Assembly: GCA_025054695.1 (NCBI GenBank) | Contig: JANWZI010000009.1 | Location: 2,945-66,944 of the forward strand | From: Myxococcota bacterium | Lineage (GTDB): Bacteria > Myxococcota_A > Polyangia > Polyangiales > JANWZI01 | Length of the DNA: 64,000 nucleotides | Direction of reading: 5' to 3' | Shown: piece after piece, positions 1,333 to 64,000 of the stretch | Layout of the letters: the number at the start of each line of letters is the position of its first letter | How positions within the stretch are numbered: position 1 is the first letter of the stretch | The notes under the pieces: generated by a model | Told to the model about the DNA's origin: nothing | Databases searched by the model: none | The model's input: only the letters and a program-made list of their open reading frames with translations | Position numbers and translations under genes: made by a program

Positions 1333-2345
1333 AGCGGCAGTCCCTCGCGGCCGAGGCGGTCGCGTGCGCCAACATCGCCCTCGCGAAGTACTGGGGCAAA
1401 CGGCCCTACGGGCGGACTGACAACTTGCCAGCCGTCCCGAGCATTTCGATGACGCTCGACAGGCTGCGCACGGTCACGCACGTTCGCATCGAGCCGGCTC
1501 GTCGCGCGACGCTCCGCGTGCGGCTCGACGGGGTCGAGGCCGACGAGACCACGTACCGGCGCGTCGGGCGAATGGTCCGGGAGGTCCTCCGCGTCGCGGG
1601 TCTGCCCACGACGAGCGCGGTGTGGGTCGACTCGCACAACGACTTTCCCACCGCGTCCGGCCTGGCCTCGAGCGCGTCGGGGTTCGCGGCGCTCGCGGCG
1701 GCGCTGCGGGTCGCGGCGGGGTTGCCGCACGATCCGGTGGAGGTTTCGCGCTTGGCGCGTAGGGCGAGCGCTTCGGCGGCGCGGTCGGTGTGGGGCGGCT
1801 TCGTCGAGCTGCCGGCGGGCGACCGGCGCACGGGCGACCGGCTCGCGGCGCGTCCGCTCGTCGGACCACGGCACTGGGATCTGCGGATGGTGGTCGCCAT
1901 CGTCGGACGCGGCCCCAAGGCAGTCGGCTCGCGGGAGGCGATGGAGCGGACGCGACGGCAGTCCCCGCTGTACGCGGCCTGGCTTCGTCTGGCGCCGCGG
2001 CTCGCGCGAGAGGTACGCGAGGGCCTGATGCGCCGGGATCTGGAGCGCGTCGGGCGCGCGATGGAGCGCAGCACCTTGGCCTTTCATGCGACGGCGCTGC
2101 TTGCAGACCCTCCGATTCTGTATGCGGAGCCGGCCACGATCGAACTGTTGCGTTCGGTCTGGCGGCTGCGAGAGGAAGGTCGAAGCGTCTGGGCGACGAT
2201 GGACGCAGGGCCGCACGTCAAGGCGTTGTGTGCGCCAGAGGACGCGTCCGTGGTCGCGGAGACGTTGCGCGCGGTGCGCGGCGTGAGGGATGTGCTGACG
2301 TGCAAACCCGGGCCGAACCTCGTCGTGCGTCGGGTCGATCGATGA
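1329..2345 (+). CDS. mvaD: Diphosphomevalonate decarboxylase
   Basis: ANIALAKYWGK, NDFPTASGLASSASGFAAL, SASAARS, TMDAGPHVK; GTG start overlaps mvk stop (GTGA). Confidence 0.93.
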   Translation: MKRQSLAAEAVACANIALAKYWGKRPYGRTDNLPAVPSISMTLDRLRTVTHVRIEPARRATLRVRLDGVEADETTYRRVGRMVREVLRVAGLPTTSAVWVDSHNDFPTASGLASSASGFAALAAALRVAAGLPHDPVEVSRLARRASASAARSVWGGFVELPAGDRRTGDRLAARPLVGPRHWDLRMVVAIVGRGPKAVGSREAMERTRRQSPLYAAWLRLAPRLAREVREGLMRRDLERVGRAMERSTLAFHATALLADPPILYAEPATIELLRSVWRLREEGRSVWATMDAGPHVKALCAPEDASVVAETLRAVRGVRDVLTCKPGPNLVVRRVDR

Positions 2346-3336
2346 GCCACGTCGGCGTCGTTCGGATCTCGGCGCCCGGCAAGATCGTGCTGCTCGGCGA
2401 GTACGCGGTGCGCGAGGGGCACGAGGCGCTCGTCGCGGCCATCGATCGGCGGGTGTGGCTGACGGCTCGGCCCATCCTTCGCGACGGTTCGCCCCCGGCC
2501 GGCGACCCTTCGCCCGAACGCGCGGGGCTGGCACCCGAGATCGCGCTAGCACTGCGGCACGCGGAACGGAGGATCGGCCGCGTGCACGCCGCGCTGCAGA
2601 TCGACACGACGGCACTGCAGCGGCAGGGCCGCAAGCTCGGGCTCGGTTCGTCGGCGGCCGGGGCGGCCGTGGCCGCCGCACTGCCCCATGCGTGGGCGGG
2701 ACGAGACGTGCAGTGCGATGAGGTGCGTCGGCTCGTGCTCGAGTCGGCCATGCACGCGCATCGCGCCGTCTCCTCGCGCGGCAGCGGCGTGGACGTGGCG
2801 GCGAGCGTGCTCGGAGGCGTGTTGCGGTATCGCAGGCCCGGCCCCGACCGATGGGAGGCCGTACCGTTCGACGCGCACGGCGGTCCCGTGCTCCGCGTGG
2901 TGTGGACGGGGAGCCCGGTGCGCACGGCTTCGATGGTCGATGCCGTCGATGCGTGGGCGCAGCGCGATTCGAATGGCTACCGGCGGTGCATCGAGGCGCT
3001 CGCGGAGGCCACGCACCGTGCTCTCGCCGCGTGGCGGAGCCCCGCGCTGTTCGACGCGGTCGAGCGGCACGCCGCCGCGATGGACGAGCTGGGGCGGGGC
3101 GCGGGGGTGCCGGTGCTCGACGAGACGACGAGGCGCGTGCGCGAACTGGCGCGACGTGTCGGAGGGGCGGCGAAGCCCTCGGGTGCCGGCGGCGGCGACG
3201 TGGTGGTCGCATTCCTGCCGGGCGACGAGGCAGCCCGTGCGTTCGAGGAGGCGTGTCGATGCGAATCGCTGCACCCGCTACGATGCGAGATGGGAGCGAG
3301 CGGCGTGAGGAACGAGCCCCCGCCGAACGACGGCTC

Positions 3337-3340
<4 letters not shown>
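2342..3340 (+). CDS. Phosphomevalonate kinase (GHMP family)
   Basis: SAPGKIVLLGEYAV, KLGLGSSAA, GSGVDVAAS, KPSGAGGGD; ATGA overlap with mvaD stop. Confidence 0.88.
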
Positions 3341-4623
<1,283 letters not shown>

Positions 4624-4624
4624 A

Positions 4625-4936
4625 GTGGGGCTGCCGGTCGCCTACGCGTTCGTCGTCGGCCTCGTCGTCGGCGGGCTCGTGCTGCTGGCGGCGATGCTCT
4701 TCGCGGAATCTCGCACGCGAGTCGTGCTCGGGCTGGGGTTTGGCGCATCGACGTTCGGCGTGACCGGCGTGCTCTGTACGCTGCTCGGTTGGCCGCCGCG
4801 GCCCTCGTCGACGGTGGCCTTCGCGGTCTTCGTCGCGCTCGGGGCCACCTGCCTCGGTGCTCGAGCGGCACCGACCGGGCGCACCCGAAAGAGCCGCGCG
4901 AGGCGAGGGCGCGTGACACGAAGAAGACGCACCTGA
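4625..4936 (+). CDS. Small hypothetical membrane protein (about 3 TM segments, basic tail)
   Basis: 103-aa hydrophobic ORF starting 1 nt after the mvaA stop. Confidence 0.55.
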   Translation: MGLPVAYAFVVGLVVGGLVLLAAMLFAESRTRVVLGLGFGASTFGVTGVLCTLLGWPPRPSSTVAFAVFVALGATCLGARAAPTGRTRKSRARRGRVTRRRRT

Positions 4937-4974
4937 CCTCGCCGTCAGGGTTCGTGGAGGTTTCGAAGGGGCGT

Positions 4975-5052
4975 GAGCGCGAGTCCGAGTCCGAGCCCGA
5001 GCCCGAGTTCGAGTCCGACCCCGAGGCGGAACCGGAGACCGAGCCCGAGTCC
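4975..5052 (+). repeat. Degenerate hexamer array R1, 13 units of GAGNCC
   Basis: GAGCGC GAGTCC GAGTCC GAGCCC GAGCCC GAGTTC GAGTCC ...; between convergent genes. Confidence 0.9.
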
Positions 5053-5102
5053 AGCTCGAAGACAGACTGCGGAATCCCGTCCGAGGCGGCCGACCGCCGT
5101 CG

Positions 5103-7976
5103 TCAGTCGATCCAGGAGACCATCTCGGGGCGCCGCGTCCGGTAATTCTCGTCGACGTAGTCGAGCAACTCGAGCAAGAACGTCTCCATCTGGGCGCCGG
5201 ACGGCGTGCCGCGCGGCGCGTCCGTGTAGAAAGTGCCCTTGAGGCATTCCTCGCCCCGGCAACGGCCGTCGGGAAACACGAAAATCATCTTCTGGAAACG
5301 CGCGTGCTCCGCAATCGCCGTCGAGGTCATGTAATTCCAGAACAAAATCCCCGTCGGCAATAGGTCCGCCGGTTCCATGCCATAGCCGTGGAGAAACACC
5401 ACGACGGGATATCGCTGATCGCGGAATTCCTCGAGGTGATAGCCGGGTGGCAAGATGATCGTGACGGGGCCGGTGCGACCGGTGCTCGCGGTGAACTCGA
5501 ACAGGATCTGGCTGGGATTGGGACAGTCCGGTCGGCCCGACTCGCATAGCCGATCGGTGACGCGGCGTCGGTCGCCACCCGGCCAGCGCGCGCTCATCCA
5601 CGACAGGGGCGCGAGCAGCCGATTGACGGCCTGAACGATGGTGCCCACGTGCGCGCCGTCCCCCATCTGGATGTCGGCCTCGGCGGCGTCCGGATCCCCG
5701 TACCGCACGAGGACGTACTTGCCGACGCCGTGCCAGAAGACGTCGGTGAACACGAATTCTTCGTCGGATCGACGGCCGTCGAGGTGCAGCGAGCCGTGGC
5801 GATTGTAGTAACGCACCGGGAGCCCCCGGGCGACGAGCGCGGACACCATGAAGTTGCTCGCCGTCGCGCCGAGGAACAGATCCCGGATGCCGCCGTCGGC
5901 GAACACGTCGAGGTTTTGCAGCGCGACCAGCGGCGCTGCGCGGATGAGCTCGCGCGGCCCCCGTGCGAGCATCCGCCGCGCCCCGTGCGCCATGTCCCAG
6001 CATCCGTTGCCTTCGCCCCGGTCGAAACCGCCGTCCGCCAGTTGCCGCGTGCCGAGGACGCCGTCGAGACCGACGTCGAGGAACGCCTCTCCGTCGGCGG
6101 GATTGCACGGGTCGCCGTTGCGGATCAGGTCGCCCTCGGTCCCCGTCGGATTGTACTGATAGTCGAAGTCGTCTCCGGCGGGGTCCGGGTTCGTGATGGG
6201 GTCGTACCCCCGCTCGTCTCGATTGCAAACCCGATCGACGCCACAATCGTCCCAGGGCTCGCGCCCGTTGCGGATCACCGGCTCTCCCGGATCGCGCCGT
6301 CCATTGGCATTGACGTCGACCGCGAGGGCCACCTCGACCGGTGTGTCGTTCGGCCCCGCCGGATCCCAGCGCCCGACGTCGCGCTCGCCGCCGACGACGC
6401 GTTCGGCTCCGTCGCAAAACGCGATGACGGGATGGCGTCCCTCCGGATTGTACTCGTCGTCGAAGAATCCCGTGCCGGGCGCTCCGCTGTAGGGCGGAAT
6501 GATCACCGGCTCGCGGCAGCGCTGGCTCGACGGACGGGTCAGTTCGCTCGCCGGAACGCCCGGGGGCAAGACGTTCGGTTCGTCCTCGGTCGCGGCGCGG
6601 TCGGTGTTGGGATTGCCGAACATGCGCGCCAGATCGCGGAAGATGGTGACGTACTCGCGGCGGTCGAAGCGCCCACCCTGTCCGTCGTGCTCGTCGACGT
6701 AGTACCAGTCCTCGAAATGCTGCGCGTGCTCGTGCATGTACCGGGGCGGCGGCACGCGCGCGAGGGAGGCGCCGGCCTCGCAAGAGGCCGGATCGCGGCG
6801 CCGTTCTTCGTCGGTGCAGAAGCCCCCGAGGTGGTAGTCGCGCATGTATTGCAGCATGTACTGCCAATCCCATGCGGCGCCCAGCGGCGCGAGGAAGTCG
6901 AACCGATCGAGATTGCGAAGGCCGGCGATCCCCGTTCCGCCACCGCCCATGGAAATGCCCGTGATTCCCCGGAAGGTCATCCGCCGCATGCGCGGGCGGC
7001 CCGCGTCGGCGCGCACCACCGCTTGATAGGTTCCCAGTCGGGGGGCCTCGAAGACGAGCCGTCCGTCCGGTCCCCCGGTCCACTGGACGAACGCCACGGG
7101 GACGCGCCGCGGCGTCGGCACGCCGGGGCCGGTGTACGTCAGCTCCACGTGGCCGTCGTGGGCGCCCTCCGGGAGTCGGGTGCGTCGGACCGGAATGGCC
7201 ATGGGGACCTCGCGCGCGAAGCGAAGGTGCACGGGACCGAAGCGAACGGCCGGACCGAGCGGTAGCCAGCCGTCGGGCACCTGGTCGGGCGCGCAGCCGA
7301 TGGACGCGTCGAAGGGCTCGACGTGATAGCGATCGCGGCGCGCCGAGTTGGGCGTCAGCGCCACGAAGGCGCCGGCGAGCGAGCCGTCGGCGACGCGAAG
7401 CTCGCCTCCCGGGGTGACACGGCCGCTCGCCATTCCCGAACATGGGGGCAGCTCGTCCGCGGTCACGACCACGTCGAGGGTTGCGGTGACCGGTGACGGG
7501 TCACCCGTCGGCGGTTGCCACCGCGCCGTCAGTCGCGTGCGGCCGGTGCCCAAACCCCGCAGGCGCACCTCGGCACGGCTCGTGTTGCGCTCGATGCGCA
7601 ACCTCGACGGCTCGAGCGCTACCACCGAGGAGTCTTCCAGCGTCAGCTCGACGTCCATGTCGACGCAGGGGTTGTCGCGCGACAGGAGCAGCGCCGCGAC
7701 GCGCGTGCGGCCCGGCACGGTGCCCACCTCGGCGGGCTCGAAGCGCAGCGCCGGCCGCGCGCGACACTCTTCCTCCGCGTCGGGCCCGGCATCCACGAAC
7801 CGCCGCGGCGGGTCGTCTCCGCCGCATGCCGCCGCACCCGCAGCGAGCAACAGCGCGAAAGCCCACCCCCACCCGCTGCCCGCACCGCGGAGGGCGTGAG
7901 CCAGGGGGACATGCGGGATCCGGCCGGCCCGGCAATCGCCGGTCACGGCGCAACAAGTCGAGAACGCACGAAGCAC
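5103..7976 (-). CDS. Large lipoprotein with alpha/beta-hydrolase (esterase) motifs; start uncertain
   Basis: Lipobox-like LLLAAGAAAC; GISMGG nucleophile elbow; C-terminal ILPPGY..YPVVVFLHGYG..VFPDG..LLDYVDENYRT. Confidence 0.8.
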   Translation of the reverse strand: MLRAFSTCCAVTGDCRAGRIPHVPLAHALRGAGSGWGWAFALLLAAGAAACGGDDPPRRFVDAGPDAEEECRARPALRFEPAEVGTVPGRTRVAALLLSRDNPCVDMDVELTLEDSSVVALEPSRLRIERNTSRAEVRLRGLGTGRTRLTARWQPPTGDPSPVTATLDVVVTADELPPCSGMASGRVTPGGELRVADGSLAGAFVALTPNSARRDRYHVEPFDASIGCAPDQVPDGWLPLGPAVRFGPVHLRFAREVPMAIPVRRTRLPEGAHDGHVELTYTGPGVPTPRRVPVAFVQWTGGPDGRLVFEAPRLGTYQAVVRADAGRPRMRRMTFRGITGISMGGGGTGIAGLRNLDRFDFLAPLGAAWDWQYMLQYMRDYHLGGFCTDEERRRDPASCEAGASLARVPPPRYMHEHAQHFEDWYYVDEHDGQGGRFDRREYVTIFRDLARMFGNPNTDRAATEDEPNVLPPGVPASELTRPSSQRCREPVIIPPYSGAPGTGFFDDEYNPEGRHPVIAFCDGAERVVGGERDVGRWDPAGPNDTPVEVALAVDVNANGRRDPGEPVIRNGREPWDDCGVDRVCNRDERGYDPITNPDPAGDDFDYQYNPTGTEGDLIRNGDPCNPADGEAFLDVGLDGVLGTRQLADGGFDRGEGNGCWDMAHGARRMLARGPRELIRAAPLVALQNLDVFADGGIRDLFLGATASNFMVSALVARGLPVRYYNRHGSLHLDGRRSDEEFVFTDVFWHGVGKYVLVRYGDPDAAEADIQMGDGAHVGTIVQAVNRLLAPLSWMSARWPGGDRRRVTDRLCESGRPDCPNPSQILFEFTASTGRTGPVTIILPPGYHLEEFRDQRYPVVVFLHGYGMEPADLLPTGILFWNYMTSTAIAEHARFQKMIFVFPDGRCRGEECLKGTFYTDAPRGTPSGAQMETFLLELLDYVDENYRTRRPEMVSWID

Positions 7977-14349: not shown

Positions 14350-16923
14350 ATGAGCCCGAAGCGCCTTGCCTGCCGCTTCTGCCTTCTGCTCGCGCTCGCC
14401 ACCGGAGCATGCGGCCGAACGGAGATGGATCTCTTCCGCGACGGAGCGCCGTCGGATTTCGACGCGGGACCCGATGCGGCCTTCGACGGGGGCGACGGCG
14501 GGGATGCGGCCGATGCGGCCGACGCGGCAGACGCCGCGGACGCGGACAACGGCGCCACGGATGCATCGGACGGCGGCGATGGCGGAGACGGGGGCGCCGA
14601 ATGCACGAGGGACGAGGATTGCGACGACGGGCTGGCCTGCAACGGTCGGCCCCGATGCCTCGACGGGTTCTGCGTCACGCCGTTGCCGGTCCCGTGCGAC
14701 GACGGAGTGGACTGCACGACCGACACGTGCGTCGAGCCCGACGGACGCTGCGACCACTCGCCGGACCACACCCGCTGCCCCCCGGGCCAGCTCTGCGATC
14801 CGGTCGACGGATGCGTGTCGATGGGATGTCGCACCGACGCCGACTGCGACGATGGACTCGTCTGCAACGGTCGCGAGCGCTGTGCCCGCGGCATGTGCAC
14901 GGGCGGGGAGCCGCTGCGGTGCGAGGATGCGGTCCCGTGCACGATGGACCGATGCGACGAGGCGGCCGGCGGCTGCGCCCACGTCCCCCTGGACGCCTTG
15001 TGCGATGACGGCGCGTTCTGCAACGGCACCGAGCGATGCGACCCGACGCGAGGCTGCCGACGCGGCCGGCCTGTCATGTGCGACGATCGCGATCCGTGCA
15101 CGACGGACCGATGCGACGAGACGTCGCGCGCGTGCGCCTCGACCCCGCTCGACGCCGACGCCGACGGTCATTCGCCGGTCTCGTGCGGTGGGTCGGACTG
15201 CGACGATGCGAACCCGCGCGTCCACCCGATGGCACGGGAGACGTGCACCGGCGGCATCGACGAGGACTGCGACGGCCTTTCCGACTGCAGCGACATGGAC
15301 TGCGCGACGGACCCGGCCTGCCGCATGTGCACGCCCGAGCTGTGCACCGGCGGCCGCGACGAGGACTGCGACCGCCTCGTCGATTGCCGCGACCCCGATT
15401 GCGCCGCCGACCCCGCCTGCGCGAGCTGCGTGCCGCGCCCCGAGAACACCGCGGCCGCGTGCGCCAACGGCGCCGACGACGACTGCGACCGCCTCGTCGA
15501 CTGCCGCGACCCCGACTGCGCGAGTCAGCCGAGCTGTGCGATGTGCACGCCCGAGGTGTGCACCGGCGGCCGCGACGAGGACTGCGACCGCCTCGTCGAT
15601 TGCCGCGATTCCGACTGCGCGAGCCATCCGGCATGCGGTGTGTGCGCCTCTCGCGAGTCGCGCTGCGCCGACGGGATCGACGACGACTGCGACGGCCGTT
15701 TCGATTGCAGCGACACCGACTGCGCGACGGACCCCGCCTGCGCCGTCTGTGGGCGCGAGAGTTGCCGCGACGGCCGCGACAACGACTGCGACGGGCTCGT
15801 CGATTGCGCGGACGGCGACTGCGTTCGAGCGCCGGGCTGCGCGACCTGCACCGTCGAGACGTGCCGCAACGGCCGCGACGACGACTGCGACGGCCGGGTC
15901 GACTGCGACGACGAGGACTGCGCGTCTTCGCCGGCCTGCCGGTTGTGCCTGCCCGTCGAGATCTGCGGCACGGGCGTCGACGACGACTGCAATGGGCTCG
16001 CCGATTGCGACGATCCGGCCTGTGCCGGCGATCCGAGCTGCCGGCCCGGCTGCACGCCCACCGAGACGGCGTGTCGGGACGGCCGAGACAACGATTGAGA
16101 CGGCACGATCGACTGCTCCGATTCCGACTGCGCCTCGCGGCCGATCTGCCGCTTCTGTTTGCCGTTCGAAGCGTGTCGCAGCGGCTTCGACGAGGACTGC
16201 GACGGCCTGTTCGACTGCGACGACCCGGACTGCGACGACGACCCGGCGTGCCGGATCTGCCGGCCTCGCGAGACGGTCTGCACCGACGGAGTCGACGACG
16301 ACTGCGACGGCCTGACCGACTGCGTAGATCCGGAGTGTGCGCGCGCGCCGGGCTGCGCGCCGCCCTGCGCGCCGCGCGAGACGGCCTGCAGCGACGGGCG
16401 GGACGAGGACTGCGACATGCTCGTGGACTGCCGGGATCCGGATTGCGCGGTCGATCCGCGGTGCCGGCCGACGGCCGATGGCGGCGTCCCGCCCCGCGAC
16501 GGAGGGACGCCGCGCGATTCGGGCGTACCGCCGCGCGACGCGGGGACGCCGAGCGACGCCGGGGCGATGTGCACGACGATGGAGCTCGGCGTCGCCGCAT
16601 GCACGAACATGCGCGACGACGACTGCGACCGGCGCACCGACTGCGCCGATCCGGACTGCTCGCCCTGGGGGCCGAGCGGCGAGTGCTGCAATGGGCTCGA
16701 CGACGACGGCGACGGCTGGACGGATTTGTTCGCGTGTCGCTGCCGCGACAACGCCGATTGCGCCGGTGTCGGCACGACACCGCTCGTCTGCTGGACCGAG
16801 ACGTACTCGGTGTGCGCACCGCCGTGCAATGCGTACGGCGGCGAGGCGTACTGCGACATGATCGATCCGGCGATGCGCTGCGTCACGAGCGGGCCGCTCG
16901 CCGGCCAGTGCGTCTACCCCTGA
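14350..16923 (+). CDS. Cys/Asp-rich repeat lipoprotein interrupted by one in-frame TGA at 16096-16098 (recoded, pseudogene or sequence error)
   Basis: Lipobox LALATGAC; CDDG..CT.D.C repeats, then 13 D[END]DCD..DC repeats; ORFs 14308-16098 and 16159-16923 share a frame and the repeat continues through the stop. Confidence 0.8.
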
Positions 16924-61683: not shown

Positions 61684-62085
61684 CCATCAGACGACGTGAC
61701 TTCCGCTGTCAGTGACCGGAGCCGAGCCAGGTGCACATTCGGATGCCCGAGTCGTTCCGTCGTCCGCCCCGGCGTCCGCGACCCATGATCGGGGCCGCAC
61801 GAGCACCCTCCCGGCTCCTTGGTGGCTCGTTCCACGGCTCGAGGCAAACAAGCATGGCAAAATCGAAAGAAAATCCGGTAGATGCAGTCGCGTCGGTAGC
61901 GCCGGCGGCGTAACATGACAGTGTCTTGAATACAGTGTGATACGGTTGCTGTGGGGGTGGACTGTCGGCGCGAATAAAGGCGGCGGAGACGCCGTCCTCG
62001 GCGTCAGTCGCATCCGGTCCGTCCGTCACCGTTCGCGCCGGCGGGACGACGCATGAAGCGGTTACGAAGGAAAGGAGATAGAAAA

Positions 62086-63279
62086 ATGCCTCCCAGCGGA
62101 TACGATGGAACGAACGGTTGGATGAGGTGGTGGGCAGCCCGCTTCGCGGCGCGCGTCGGTGGGGGTGACGGCGAGGGCGGCTCGGCCGCCTTCGACGGCA
62201 CGGAGGACGGCGCACGGAGCCTGCCCGAGGGTTACGACGGCGGCGACTTGCGGGACGAGACCGGCACGGCGCACTCGTGTGGGCACGAGTCGCGCGCGGC
62301 GAGAGATGAGGCAGATGCCTCGGAACGTGAGGAGCCGGGGGAGGCTGCTGCGTGGGTCGCGTTCCCGTGGGAACAGCCCGGCCCGTCGAGCGGACGCAAA
62401 TGGGCCGCGCTCGACGAATCGGACGTCCGAGGGCACGCCGTGGACGACGCACGAGCACGGCTGCGGTTCCGCCTTGCCTCGCTCCGGTGGCGGGCGTGGA
62501 ACCTGCGGCGGAGCGTCGTGTTTCCGCTTTTGGAGCCACGAATCCAGCACGACCGCTTCGAGATTCCGTTCGACGCCGAGCGGAGACGGAGAGCTCTCGT
62601 ACCCCTCGACGTGTCCTCGGGGACGGAGGCCGGTTCGGTGCGTGCCTCCTCCAGCGTGTCGTCCGAGCGTTGCGTCTGCCGGTCGTGGCGCCCCGGGGTC
62701 GGGGTGGACATTCAGGCCACCGAGCCGGCGGCTCGACTCCACGTCGGTCGAACGTTCGATTGGATGCACGGTCGGGTGCGGGTCGTGGAAACCCCTCGTG
62801 GCGGTCACCCGTTCTTCGAGCCCTCCTGGTGGTGGTTCACCCGTAGCCCCCGACACGAGGTGGCTGCGCTCTGGCTCGTCGTGTCGGACGAATCCGTGCT
62901 CGGCTGGGGAGACCGAATCGCATCGCAACTCGAGGGGCTCGGCCGTGTCATGCTCGCCGGAGCGTCGCGGGTGCTCGAAATTCCGGGGTTCCTGCTCGGG
63001 GTCCAGCACGTCGTCGGCGCGCGCGCGGTGGTGGTTTACGACCGCTCGACGCAACTCGAGCAGGCGCCCGCCATGGCGCTCGAGGACTGGCCGCGAATCC
63101 TGTCCGAGGGCGTCAGGGCGCTCGAACGCTGCACGTGCGACGCCGACGCGCCGCGGGGTGTCCATGCACGAAGCGAGCAGCGGGTGCGCGCGGCCCGCAC
63201 GAACGAGGAGGGAATCGCGCTCGCACGACGGCTGCTCGAGCTCGAAGGAGCGCCGACGACGCGGACCCGGGTGACATGA
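62086..63279 (+). CDS. Hypothetical protein, no family recognised
   Basis: AAGGAG 8 nt before the ATG at 62086; open for 397 codons; Trp-rich. Confidence 0.45.
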   Translation: MPPSGYDGTNGWMRWWAARFAARVGGGDGEGGSAAFDGTEDGARSLPEGYDGGDLRDETGTAHSCGHESRAARDEADASEREEPGEAAAWVAFPWEQPGPSSGRKWAALDESDVRGHAVDDARARLRFRLASLRWRAWNLRRSVVFPLLEPRIQHDRFEIPFDAERRRRALVPLDVSSGTEAGSVRASSSVSSERCVCRSWRPGVGVDIQATEPAARLHVGRTFDWMHGRVRVVETPRGGHPFFEPSWWWFTRSPRHEVAALWLVVSDESVLGWGDRIASQLEGLGRVMLAGASRVLEIPGFLLGVQHVVGARAVVVYDRSTQLEQAPAMALEDWPRILSEGVRALERCTCDADAPRGVHARSEQRVRAARTNEEGIALARRLLELEGAPTTRTRVT

Positions 63280-63289
63280 TCGCGGGCTG

Positions 63290-63406
63290 CGGCTCGAAGT
63301 CGAGCTCGGCCTCGGTCTCGGACTCGGGCTCGGTCTCGGGATCGGTCTCGGGATCGGACTCGCTCTCGGGCTCGGACTCGGTCTTGGACTCGGGATCGGG
63401 ATCGGT
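63290..63406 (-). repeat. Degenerate hexamer array R15 (about 19 units)
   Basis: ctcggt/ctcgga/atcggg run upstream of the four-helix-bundle gene. Confidence 0.9.
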
Positions 63407-63467
63407 GACTGCGCCCGCTCGCGTGTCGCCGCGCCTCGTCGCCTCGGGGGGTGTGCAGCCAGTAGGC

Positions 63468-63513
63468 GCGAAAGAACACGTGCCAGCACACGACGCTGTC
63501 ACGGTTCTTTCGC
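63468..63513 (+). other. 18-bp bulged hairpin directly before the RBS of the four-helix-bundle gene
   Basis: GCGAAAGAAC-a-CGTG-c-CAGC-[ACACGAC]-GCTG-t-CACG-GTTCTTTCGC. Confidence 0.75.
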
Positions 63514-63525
63514 TCGGAGGCGGGC

Positions 63526-63858
63526 ATGCACACCCCCCTTCGGCTCGAGGCGCTGGACCTGTTGCTCGACACGATCACGCGCATGCGCCCGCTCGTCGAA
63601 TCGATCGAATCGGTCGACCGAGACCTCGCACGACAAATCCGGCGCGCGGCGAGCAGCGCGGCGCTCAACCTGGCCGAGGCTGACGGCAGTGACCGGGGCA
63701 ATCGTCGCGCGAGGCTGCACACGGCGCTCGGGTCCCTTCGCGAGGCGCGGGTGGGGCTGCGCGTGGCGGTAGCATGGGGCTACGTCGACGACGTCGCGGA
63801 AGCGGAGCGCGCGCTGGACCGCGTTGCGGCGATGACGTGGGGTCTGCTGCGGCGGTGA
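63526..63858 (+). CDS. Four-helix-bundle protein (23S rRNA IVP / Avd-like superfamily)
   Basis: DLARQIRRAASSAALNLAEADG..RARLHTALGSLRE..AVAWGYV; RBS GGAGG at 63516-63520. Confidence 0.9.
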   Translation: MHTPLRLEALDLLLDTITRMRPLVESIESVDRDLARQIRRAASSAALNLAEADGSDRGNRRARLHTALGSLREARVGLRVAVAWGYVDDVAEAERALDRVAAMTWGLLRR

Positions 63859-63860
63859 GG

Positions 63861-63973
63861 CGGACTCGGACTCGGACTCGGTCCCGGACTCGGACTCGGA
63901 CTCGGACTCGGGGTCGGGGTCGGGCTCGGACTCGGACTCTGCCTCGGTCTCCGACTTGGTCTCGGTCTCGGTC
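63861..63973 (-). repeat. Degenerate hexamer array R16 (about 19 units)
   Basis: cggact/cggggt/cggtct run starting 2 nt after the four-helix-bundle stop. Confidence 0.92.
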
Positions 63974-64000
63974 ATTCCTCCTGGCACTCTGCTCTTGACG

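Follow-up and report, generated by a model that had tools for sequence, protein, structure and literature searches.

What is a 110-aa gene of the four-helix-bundle type doing between two arrays of the same hexanucleotide? The question is raised by a locus close to the end of the window analyzed here, by which we mean the whole 64,000 nt-long stretch of contig JANWZI010000009.1 (positions 2,945 to 66,944, forward strand) in assembly GCA_025054695.1 of a Myxococcota bacterium. The original prediction, made from the letters of this DNA, had described two co-oriented arrays, a hairpin-containing leader, a 110-aa gene and an array starting 2 nt past its stop codon, and this layout proved correct in all particulars. 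It had also raised the possibility that the gene moves as a repeat-bounded cassette, and we found that gene, hairpin leader and flanking arrays are indeed one repeated, dispersed unit, present in at least 15 copies and with arrays on every visible flank. With a probability of roughly 0.55, we read the locus as one copy of a selfish multi-copy cassette, consisting of the hairpin leader and the open reading frame (ORF), which without exception sits in a fixed orientation within co-oriented hexamer arrays; these arrays would serve as its ends, and RecA-type recombination would provide its mobility.

The locus comprises the following features, given in coordinates of the window:

63281..63406, plus strand: array of period 6 upstream of the gene and in its orientation, (CTCGGN)n with about 21 units (Tandem Repeats Finder and unit-based finder)
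63407..63430, plus strand: junction segment from the array to the main hairpin; small stem-loop in the fold, partially conserved among copies
63431..63553, plus strand: leader hairpin (fold and covariation), apical stem conserved in four other genomes
63526..63858, plus strand: four-helix-bundle gene (PF05635 / TIGR02436), the copy termed A-type; 110 aa, pI 10.3
63861..63972, plus strand: array of period 6 downstream of the gene and in its orientation, (CTCGGN)n with about 18 units

Tandem Repeats Finder placed the two period-6 arrays at 63300-63406 and 63861-63971, and a stricter unit-based finder at 63281-63406 (21 units) and 63865-63972 (18 units), both with the unit CTCGGN on the plus strand. 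The spacing is tight on both sides: the upstream array starts 2 nt past the stop codon (63277-63279) of the ORF at 62053-63279, a leader of 120 nt separates it from the four-helix-bundle ORF, and the stop codon of the latter (63856-63858) is followed after 2 nt by the downstream array, from 63861 on.

Copies of the cassette in the genome

The assembly (4.27 Mb in 261 contigs, 71.4% G+C, 92.6% complete) contained 16 matches in a protein search, many of them fragments at contig starts, and a blastn search with leader plus ORF yielded 15 distinct 3′ ends and 14 leader 5′ ends, corresponding to at least 15 dispersed copies. Five of these are assembled whole or nearly so, namely the window copy (contig C261) and those on contigs C201, C222, C194 and C79. 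ORF identity to the window copy amounts to 84-97% at the DNA and 91-100% at the protein level, and the adjacent genes vary from copy to copy, which places the copies in unrelated contexts. The similarity between copies extends from about the base of the hairpin to 8 bases beyond the stop codon, defining a conserved unit of leader and ORF at approximately 63431-63866, outside of which the arrays vary in unit order and length. Co-oriented arrays were present at 11/11 visible upstream and 15/15 visible downstream flanks, and the downstream array begins exactly 2 nt after the stop codon in all 15 copies.

Approximately 20 contig ends lie within the cassette, which is therefore a main cause of breaks in this assembly. 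Both ends of contig C31 (9421 bases) are of this kind, its first bases belonging to a leader and its last to an ORF of the cassette. A single paralog, diverged to 47% identity and termed B-type, was found on contig C206, convergent with a cut A-type copy and with a shared array between the two; its leader hairpin exhibits compensatory changes. This arrangement (C206, 1-480) is the sole convergent A/B pair of the genome, and such pairs are the rule in the related genomes G008, G012, G022 and G031. On contig C222 (approximately 1-330), one cassette copy is immediately followed downstream, with only a short degenerate hexamer array in between, by a CRISPR (clustered regularly interspaced short palindromic repeats) array; the CRISPR array has at least 4 repeats of 37 nt with spacers of 35-37 nt and is cut by the contig start.

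Hexamer arrays throughout the genome

A loose period-6 scan returned 1023 arrays in the genome and the strict finder 641 (339 on the plus and 302 on the minus strand), with a median length of 108 bp and a share of 1.7% of the genome (about 2% of the DNA). Solo arrays number approximately 650-1000. As background we used gene calls from a caller based on the G+C content at third codon positions (GC3), which delivered 2808 genes covering 72.5% of the genome. Of the 641 strict arrays, 599 lie outside gene calls and 82 at contig edges; 173 occur in the 441 convergent, 84 in the 456 divergent and 260 in the 1679 tandem gaps, and their orientation is unrelated to that of the adjacent genes. We considered a distance of 150 nt on either side of the 2542 genes that lie far enough from contig ends: an array is present upstream of 7.4% and downstream of about 20% of them, 1.8% have arrays on both sides, and in 0.4% both arrays are in addition co-oriented with the gene. 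The arrangement of the cassette is far beyond chance: its paralogs have arrays beside them much more often than random genes do, with this 0.4% to be set against co-oriented arrays on every one of their visible flanks.

A second array-bracketed gene family was not detected in this genome, and the 46 other bracketed genes are ordinary genes of all sizes. The cassette leader was not found at solo arrays by blastn within the assembly. Arrays are about 2.7 times more common within 150 nt downstream of genes than upstream and are densest in convergent gaps, and a subset of them shares a conserved upstream box that is unrelated to the cassette leader. We also considered the arrays as coding sequence and rejected this idea, as the units of different genomes imply dipeptides without likeness to each other and most arrays lie outside gene calls.

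Could the cassette be a mere passenger, landing or surviving in arrays that an unrelated process, such as polymerase slippage, has produced? Arrays in many intergenic gaps, lacking orientation bias and favoring 3′ ends and convergent gaps in the manner of neutral repeats, would agree with such an origin, as would solo arrays devoid of cassette sequence. The fixed 2-nt spacing behind the stop codon in 15/15 copies is hard to reconcile with it, and so are the observations on other genomes described below, where arrays are rare except beside these genes and where unit, period and layout track the gene across families and phyla. We therefore regard passive carriage as unlikely.

The leader hairpin

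The 161 nt around the leader fold with −100 kcal/mol, compared with −70.9 ± 4.5 kcal/mol in 200 shuffled sequences, none of which was as good (z −6.55). The hairpin at 63431-63553 has a predicted stem of about 60 interrupted pairs and encloses a GGAGG that resembles a Shine-Dalgarno sequence (63516-63520), the start codon (ATG at 63526) and the initial 28 nt of the ORF; all three are paired with the 5′ arm. For comparison, 14 leaders were aligned: this genome contributed its B-type leader and 6 of its A-type leaders (at least 11 exist), and the same-order genomes G017, G018, G022 and G031 contributed 7. The foreign leaders were chosen for a common apical motif; those of G004, G008, G012 and G035 were left out, as their hairpin sequences are unrelated and unalignable.

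RNAalifold predicted 27 pairs for these 14 leaders from five genomes, 16 of them with changes on both sides. Pairing was possible in 95.9% of 364 cells, compared with 37-47% when the 3′ partners were slid by 1-3 columns, and none of 500 shuffles reached the observed level of covariation. In the outer helix, where upstream bases pair with the start codon and the first codons, 8 of 10 pairs show double changes, so that the first codons and the upstream arm must have changed together. The leaders of G008, G012, G004 and G035 form near-perfect stems of other sequences over the Shine-Dalgarno region. Judged from fold and covariation, the hairpin is under selection and is predicted to sequester the ribosome-binding site and the start codon.

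Only 1 G-U pair occurs among the 364 cells, and one-sided changes are almost absent. The stems keep Watson-Crick pairing in either DNA strand, an uncommon property for a structure that acts solely as RNA. On inspection by eye, the apical motif was considered as sigma-54-like, but this was dropped, as the GC at −12 is lacking.

The four-helix-bundle protein

The 110-aa protein matches PF05635 with 39.7 bits (cut-off 33.8) and TIGR02436 with 44.4 bits (cut-off 24). A family motif that includes R-x3-S-x3-N-x2-E is quoted in a passage of Zhang et al. (2014, PMC3936711), and this part is present here as R40, S44, N48 and E51; in 21 aligned sequences S44 and N48 are nearly invariant and E51 is invariant. 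According to an AlphaFold2 model based on 21 aligned relatives (predicted local distance difference test score, pLDDT, 95.3), the protein is a four-helix bundle with helices at residues 5-28, 32-52, 57-83 and 91-109. The solved structures closest to this model are BT_0352 (2RLD; template modeling (TM) score 0.84-0.87) and XCC0516 (2GSC), with TM scores of 0.69-0.87 across the 2GSC and 2RLD entries, each of which was deposited with five chains. Next comes Avd of the diversity-generating retroelements (DGRs), represented by 4DWL_D (TM 0.81/0.84, root-mean-square deviation 1.6 Å) and by the DGR ribonucleoprotein entries 8UB7/8UB8. This structural match supports the Avd-like fold that had been proposed for the gene. 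A profile of 21 sequences searched against the PDB hit 2GSC (E 2.2e-15) and 2RLD (6.5e-7). The protein is basic, with a pI of 9.7-11 in most of 28 such proteins. The PADLOC profiles assigned neither the A-type nor the B-type protein to a family, and the PHROGs profiles gave no family for the A-type protein.

PMC10053308 relates PF05635 to Avd, a protein that binds nucleic acids and reverse transcriptase (RT), and names it as the commonest family beside DGR RTs. Together with the fold, this would speak for a DGR or another RT-dependent system in which the gene acts as Avd. The statement that the window holds no RT was found to hold and extends to the whole assembly, in which no candidate for an RT (PF00078) was detected at 92.6% completeness; the same-order genomes G017, G022 and G028 possess the gene and also gave no RT match. 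A template/variable repeat pair was not noticed around the copies that were read, although no search was aimed at such pairs. An RT-dependent role thus appears highly improbable.

Relatives in the same order

We searched 40 genomes of the same order, all from other families, and obtained a match to the gene in 18, with at least 30 matches each in G021 and G035, 16 in G008, 11 each in G009 and G012, 10 in G031 and 9 in G004. Period-6 arrays were found beside the gene in 19 of the 28 loci fetched and in 13 of the 18 genomes. Their units are lineage-specific (CAGTGC in G008, GGGAAC in G012, GACCGC in G004, GGAGGC in G017 and CTGCGY in G009), with units of the type seen in the window genome in G031, G022, G021 and G002. 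Of 20 further loci from G008, G031 and G012, 18 have two convergent genes, A and B, each preceded by its own leader hairpin, with an array at either outer end and the two arrays in direct orientation; the remaining two loci are truncated at contig ends.

With the same detector, random DNA of the 18 gene-positive genomes contained 13 arrays in 716,906 bp, of which 2 flank a four-helix-bundle gene that was sampled by chance and 5 lie together at one contig start; the 22 gene-negative genomes gave 3 short arrays in 754,032 bp. As random DNA of the relatives is almost devoid of arrays, the arrays there belong to the gene. The window genome is exceptional in having arrays everywhere. Array-rich genomes that lack the family, which would have spoken against a connection, were not encountered: the same-order genomes rich in arrays are those rich in the family.

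These findings also fit a more active part for the protein. Alone or as an A/B pair, it might bind the repeats, or slipped or hairpin intermediates of them, and make or spread the arrays, relating to them as RAYT (REP-associated tyrosine transposase) relates to repetitive extragenic palindromic (REP) sequences, with the 650-1000 solo arrays as its products. The near confinement of same-order arrays to the flanks of these genes points in this direction, as do the appearance of arrays in random samples from just those genomes that have the most gene matches (G008, G021, G035 and the window genome), the basic character of the protein, the fold of a nucleic-acid- and RT-binding protein, and its place as the only multi-copy gene embedded in arrays here. 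On the other side, the fold has no known enzymatic type, related genomes are not independent samples, and 20-60 kb was sampled per genome. We consider an array-making protein possible but rather doubtful, also in view of the subfamily considered next.

Heptamer-flanked genes in other phyla

A canonical-looking relative from locus L027 was used as tblastn query against a plasmid collection and retrieved 4 records, all of them cyanobacterial and all 4 with a heptamer-flanked gene. In the Pseudanabaena galeata plasmid NZ_CP112875.1 (2495-2854), the gene separates cas6 from cas4 in a type I-D operon and is preceded by about 15 heptamer units and followed by 14, in direct rather than inverted arrangement. 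When species genomes were scanned with a Calothrix protein, we obtained 80 loci (54-100% identity) in more than ten phyla, including cyanobacteria, Chloroflexota, Planctomycetota, Verrucomicrobiota, Bacteroidota, Acidobacteriota, Nitrospirota and Poribacteria. An array of period 7 (rarely 8) lies within 200 nt of the gene in 74 of the 80 loci, 64 of which have it upstream and 62 downstream, with 52 having arrays on either side; near the gene we counted 159 arrays in 34.6 kb, compared with 92 in 189 kb further out. Upstream and downstream units agree in length in 50 loci, and in 44 of these the one is the reverse complement of the other.

Five genomes were searched whole, and 20 of their 24 PF05635 genes have arrays within 260 nt, 16 of them on both sides; 400 kb of random DNA from these genomes contained 39 period-7/8 arrays, including some gene-less inverted pairs. 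Nearly every canonical copy in the five genomes has its own unit. Such copy-specific units around very similar proteins speak against the protein as the maker of the arrays.

In an Emticicia genome (G043; L236, 11209-11330), a gene-less inverted heptamer pair with a 48-nt spacer has its unit and junction in common with a pseudogenized cassette (L220) of the same genome, and looks like a miniature derivative. In several Anaerolineales loci (L129, L134, L137, L139, L143 and others), an extra heptamer array occurs approximately 700 nt downstream of the gene, at about +1040 to +1100 from the gene start, and may bound a second small cassette gene.

On a broader scale, PF05635 proteins could be the trans-acting partner of dispersed bacterial short tandem arrays, whether hexamers or heptamers such as the short tandemly repeated repetitive (STRR) and TAACTGA sequences. 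As non-enzymatic Avd-like binders without an RT or recombinase of their own, they would drive the formation, spread or maintenance of arrays, and solo arrays would be their products or the footprints of lost cassettes. We put this forward tentatively, as a proposal with the odds against it.

Another question is whether the protein serves its host, as a regulatory or chromatin-like factor with the arrays as operator-like sites and the hairpin as an autoregulatory translational switch, the locus not being mobile. Heptad arrays are known as iterated binding sites of the omega repressor, and a small basic fold that forms oligomers (as the five chains each in 2GSC and 2RLD would suggest), arrays directly at the gene and a hairpin masking the start codon would suit such a role. 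At least 15 near-identical copies in unrelated contexts, breaking the assembly, do not suit it. The canonical subfamily moreover has 55-70% protein identity across phyla and occurs within operons, such as between cas6 and cas4, which indicates horizontal spread, and some copies are pseudogenes. A host regulator is in our view very unlikely.

In its passages on these genes, which do not mention repeats, Zhang et al. (2014, PMC3936711) report 18 family genes inside cas loci. Insertion of a cassette is a simpler reading of PF05635 genes within cas operons than a function in CRISPR.

Proposed mechanism

From the sequences we infer the following course of events for the selfish cassette. The arrays would be its cis-acting ends rather than a pre-existing general feature of the genome. 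RecA-type recombination between the direct arrays would loop the cassette out together with one array, leaving a solo array behind, and the resulting circle of cassette plus array could re-enter any other array through a single crossover. Recombination between arrays would explain the fixed orientation as well as the lack of target duplications and of a recombinase gene. The hairpin would block the translation of read-through transcripts from neighboring genes and is a likely substrate of RNase III, as in 23S rRNA intervening sequences with the same gene family, and the basic Avd-like protein may bind the nucleic acid of the element. In the four fully flanked copies, the two arrays sum to about 200-290 bp, approximately twice the solo median of 108 bp, which lends weak support to re-insertion (n = 4). 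A Y1 (IS200-like) transposase (PF01797) had no match in the assembly, with 6 of 14 control genomes positive.

Several points weigh against this course of events. Neither a filled/empty allele pair nor an excised circle was found in the contigs or in the scan for orthologous sites. The sequencing data listed comprise three DNA sets, each labeled hot springs metagenome and stored as contigs, and no RNA set. No contig bridges unique flank to unique flank without the cassette; the contig joints listed have 21-49 letters on their shorter side and can stem from other array loci, and the summed contig depth (set X1) of about 9 for the flanks, 370-460 for the cassette and 1900-5600 for the arrays is not a copy number. 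A metagenome scan for an orthologous empty site, using the downstream radical S-adenosylmethionine (SAM) protein, reached 56% identity at best, hence no close relative, and its 80 loci (373 kb) contained neither arrays nor four-helix-bundle genes. The idea that solo arrays are empty sites was consequently not borne out, with no filled/empty pair and no leader at solo arrays. As solo arrays far outnumber cassettes and lack the leader, most of them must have another origin or be old footprints, and homologous recombination cannot seed an array at an array-free site. The copies are 3-16% apart in DNA, so that none need be recent. A constraint on DNA or on both strands fits the near-absence of G-U pairs at least as well as an RNA role of the hairpin, and the individual unit of each canonical copy argues against sequence-specific recognition of units by the protein. 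Finally, the gene calls behind the chance expectation are crude, and the copies are paralogs, whose 26 flanks cannot all count as independent, even though from the second unit onward their arrays are different.

Surroundings of the locus

The locus is situated between the ORF ending at 63279 and a radical-SAM gene, in protein-coding surroundings. The region 63200-64000 gave no rRNA match, and the locus is not an insertion into a 23S rRNA gene, where helix 25 or 45 would be the site. An Rfam search of the same region with E values up to 10 returned nothing but sub-threshold microRNA-like matches on the arrays, and a sigma-70 promoter scan of 63100-64000 found no sites.

The far edge of the downstream array is unique sequence in the genome. 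On the minus strand (63499-63987), a GGAGGA and an ATG past the far end of this array open a 162-aa frame, which crosses the array as acidic Thr/Ser-Glu repeats and then runs antisense to the four-helix-bundle gene. Because its flank is unique in the genome, this frame is probably not a gene. The upstream ORF (62053-63279, 408 aa) has no Pfam or NCBIfam match and passed the GC3 test weakly, by its last third (62860-63279) only; 61700-62860 is without a confident gene. Elsewhere in the window, 99-nt tandem repeats (2.2-4.6 copies, 70-76% matches) occur at 15403-16013 within a probable gene (14683-16098) that is rich in GAC/TGC codons.

Comparison with known systems

Two old puzzles meet at this locus. 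Structures of PF05635 proteins have been solved since 2006-2007 and the family is known from rRNA intervening sequences and DGRs, yet outside DGRs it is still without a function; the dispersed short tandem arrays, for their part, have a literature going back decades that offers no mechanism. With the orphan family and the unexplained arrays found physically together, both become testable. The genome is an extreme case, with about 2% of its DNA in hexamer arrays and a cassette that breaks the assembly, and may be useful for the binning and annotation of such genomes.

TAACTGA arrays occur in Beggiatoaceae, cyanobacteria and Bacteroidetes, and their spread is said in MacGregor (2015, PMC4679880) to suggest horizontal transfer "but no mechanism is evident"; GGGAATC repeats of Xanthomonas and Nostoc are treated in PMC4692102. 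The gene family is not mentioned in the searched text of these two articles, where S23, four helix and 23S rRNA do not occur. We found no paper linking PF05635 to tandem arrays, although supplementary gene lists, such as that of MacGregor's repeat-adjacent ORFs, might do so. A further example are the cyanobacterial STRR sequences, which are dispersed intergenic heptamer arrays. The hexamer arrays resemble all three as abundant short-period intergenic tandem arrays that are spread over distant phyla and for which neither a mechanism nor a binding protein is known, and differ from the heptamers in their period of 6 and in their far higher density in the window genome.

In combining one gene family with hundreds of short repeats between genes, the genome recalls the REP sequences and their doublets (REPINs) with the RAYT transposase, which were reportedly described by Bertels and Rainey in 2011. 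Here, in contrast, a Y1 transposase was not detected, tandem arrays take the place of palindrome doublets, and the gene has no known catalytic fold. In the insertion sequences IS10 and IS50, fold-back inhibition silences outside transcripts by pairing upstream sequence with the translation start of the transposase. The cassette likewise has sequence upstream of its gene that pairs with the translation start, but there is no transposase, and the masking role suggested here comes from structure and covariation only. With Avd of the DGRs (4DWL, 8UB7/8UB8) the protein has in common the four-helix bundle (TM 0.72-0.84) and its basic character; unlike in DGRs, no RT was found, and sequence similarity to Avd was not detected by a hidden Markov model search against the PDB.

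The heptamer-flanked canonical cassettes are nearer, having the same family, short-period arrays on both sides that abut start and stop, and dispersed copies. The element of the window departs from them in its period of 6 instead of 7-8, in direct instead of inverted arrays and in one unit genome-wide, and further in its separate covarying leader hairpin, the convergent A/B pairs of its relatives and the approximately 650-1000 solo arrays.

ORF-bearing intervening sequences in the 23S rRNA of Leptospira are said to have been reported by Ralph and McClelland in 1993. The one of Coxiella burnetii, with an S23p ORF, is presented by Warrier et al. (2016, PMC4990558) as a selfish element that is excised by RNase III. 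Like these, the cassette is a small selfish insert with a PF05635 gene as its only ORF and with its ends or leader in a long stem. Unlike them, it lies between protein-coding genes in at least 15 copies with direct hexamer arrays, and its stem forms locally, as a hairpin of the leader that covers the start codon, instead of joining the two ends. The PF05635 insertion-cassette kind has its published representative in the ORF-bearing rRNA intervening sequence, and the locus, with its hexamers, direct arrays, leader hairpin, A/B pairs and array bloom, is a new architecture of this kind.

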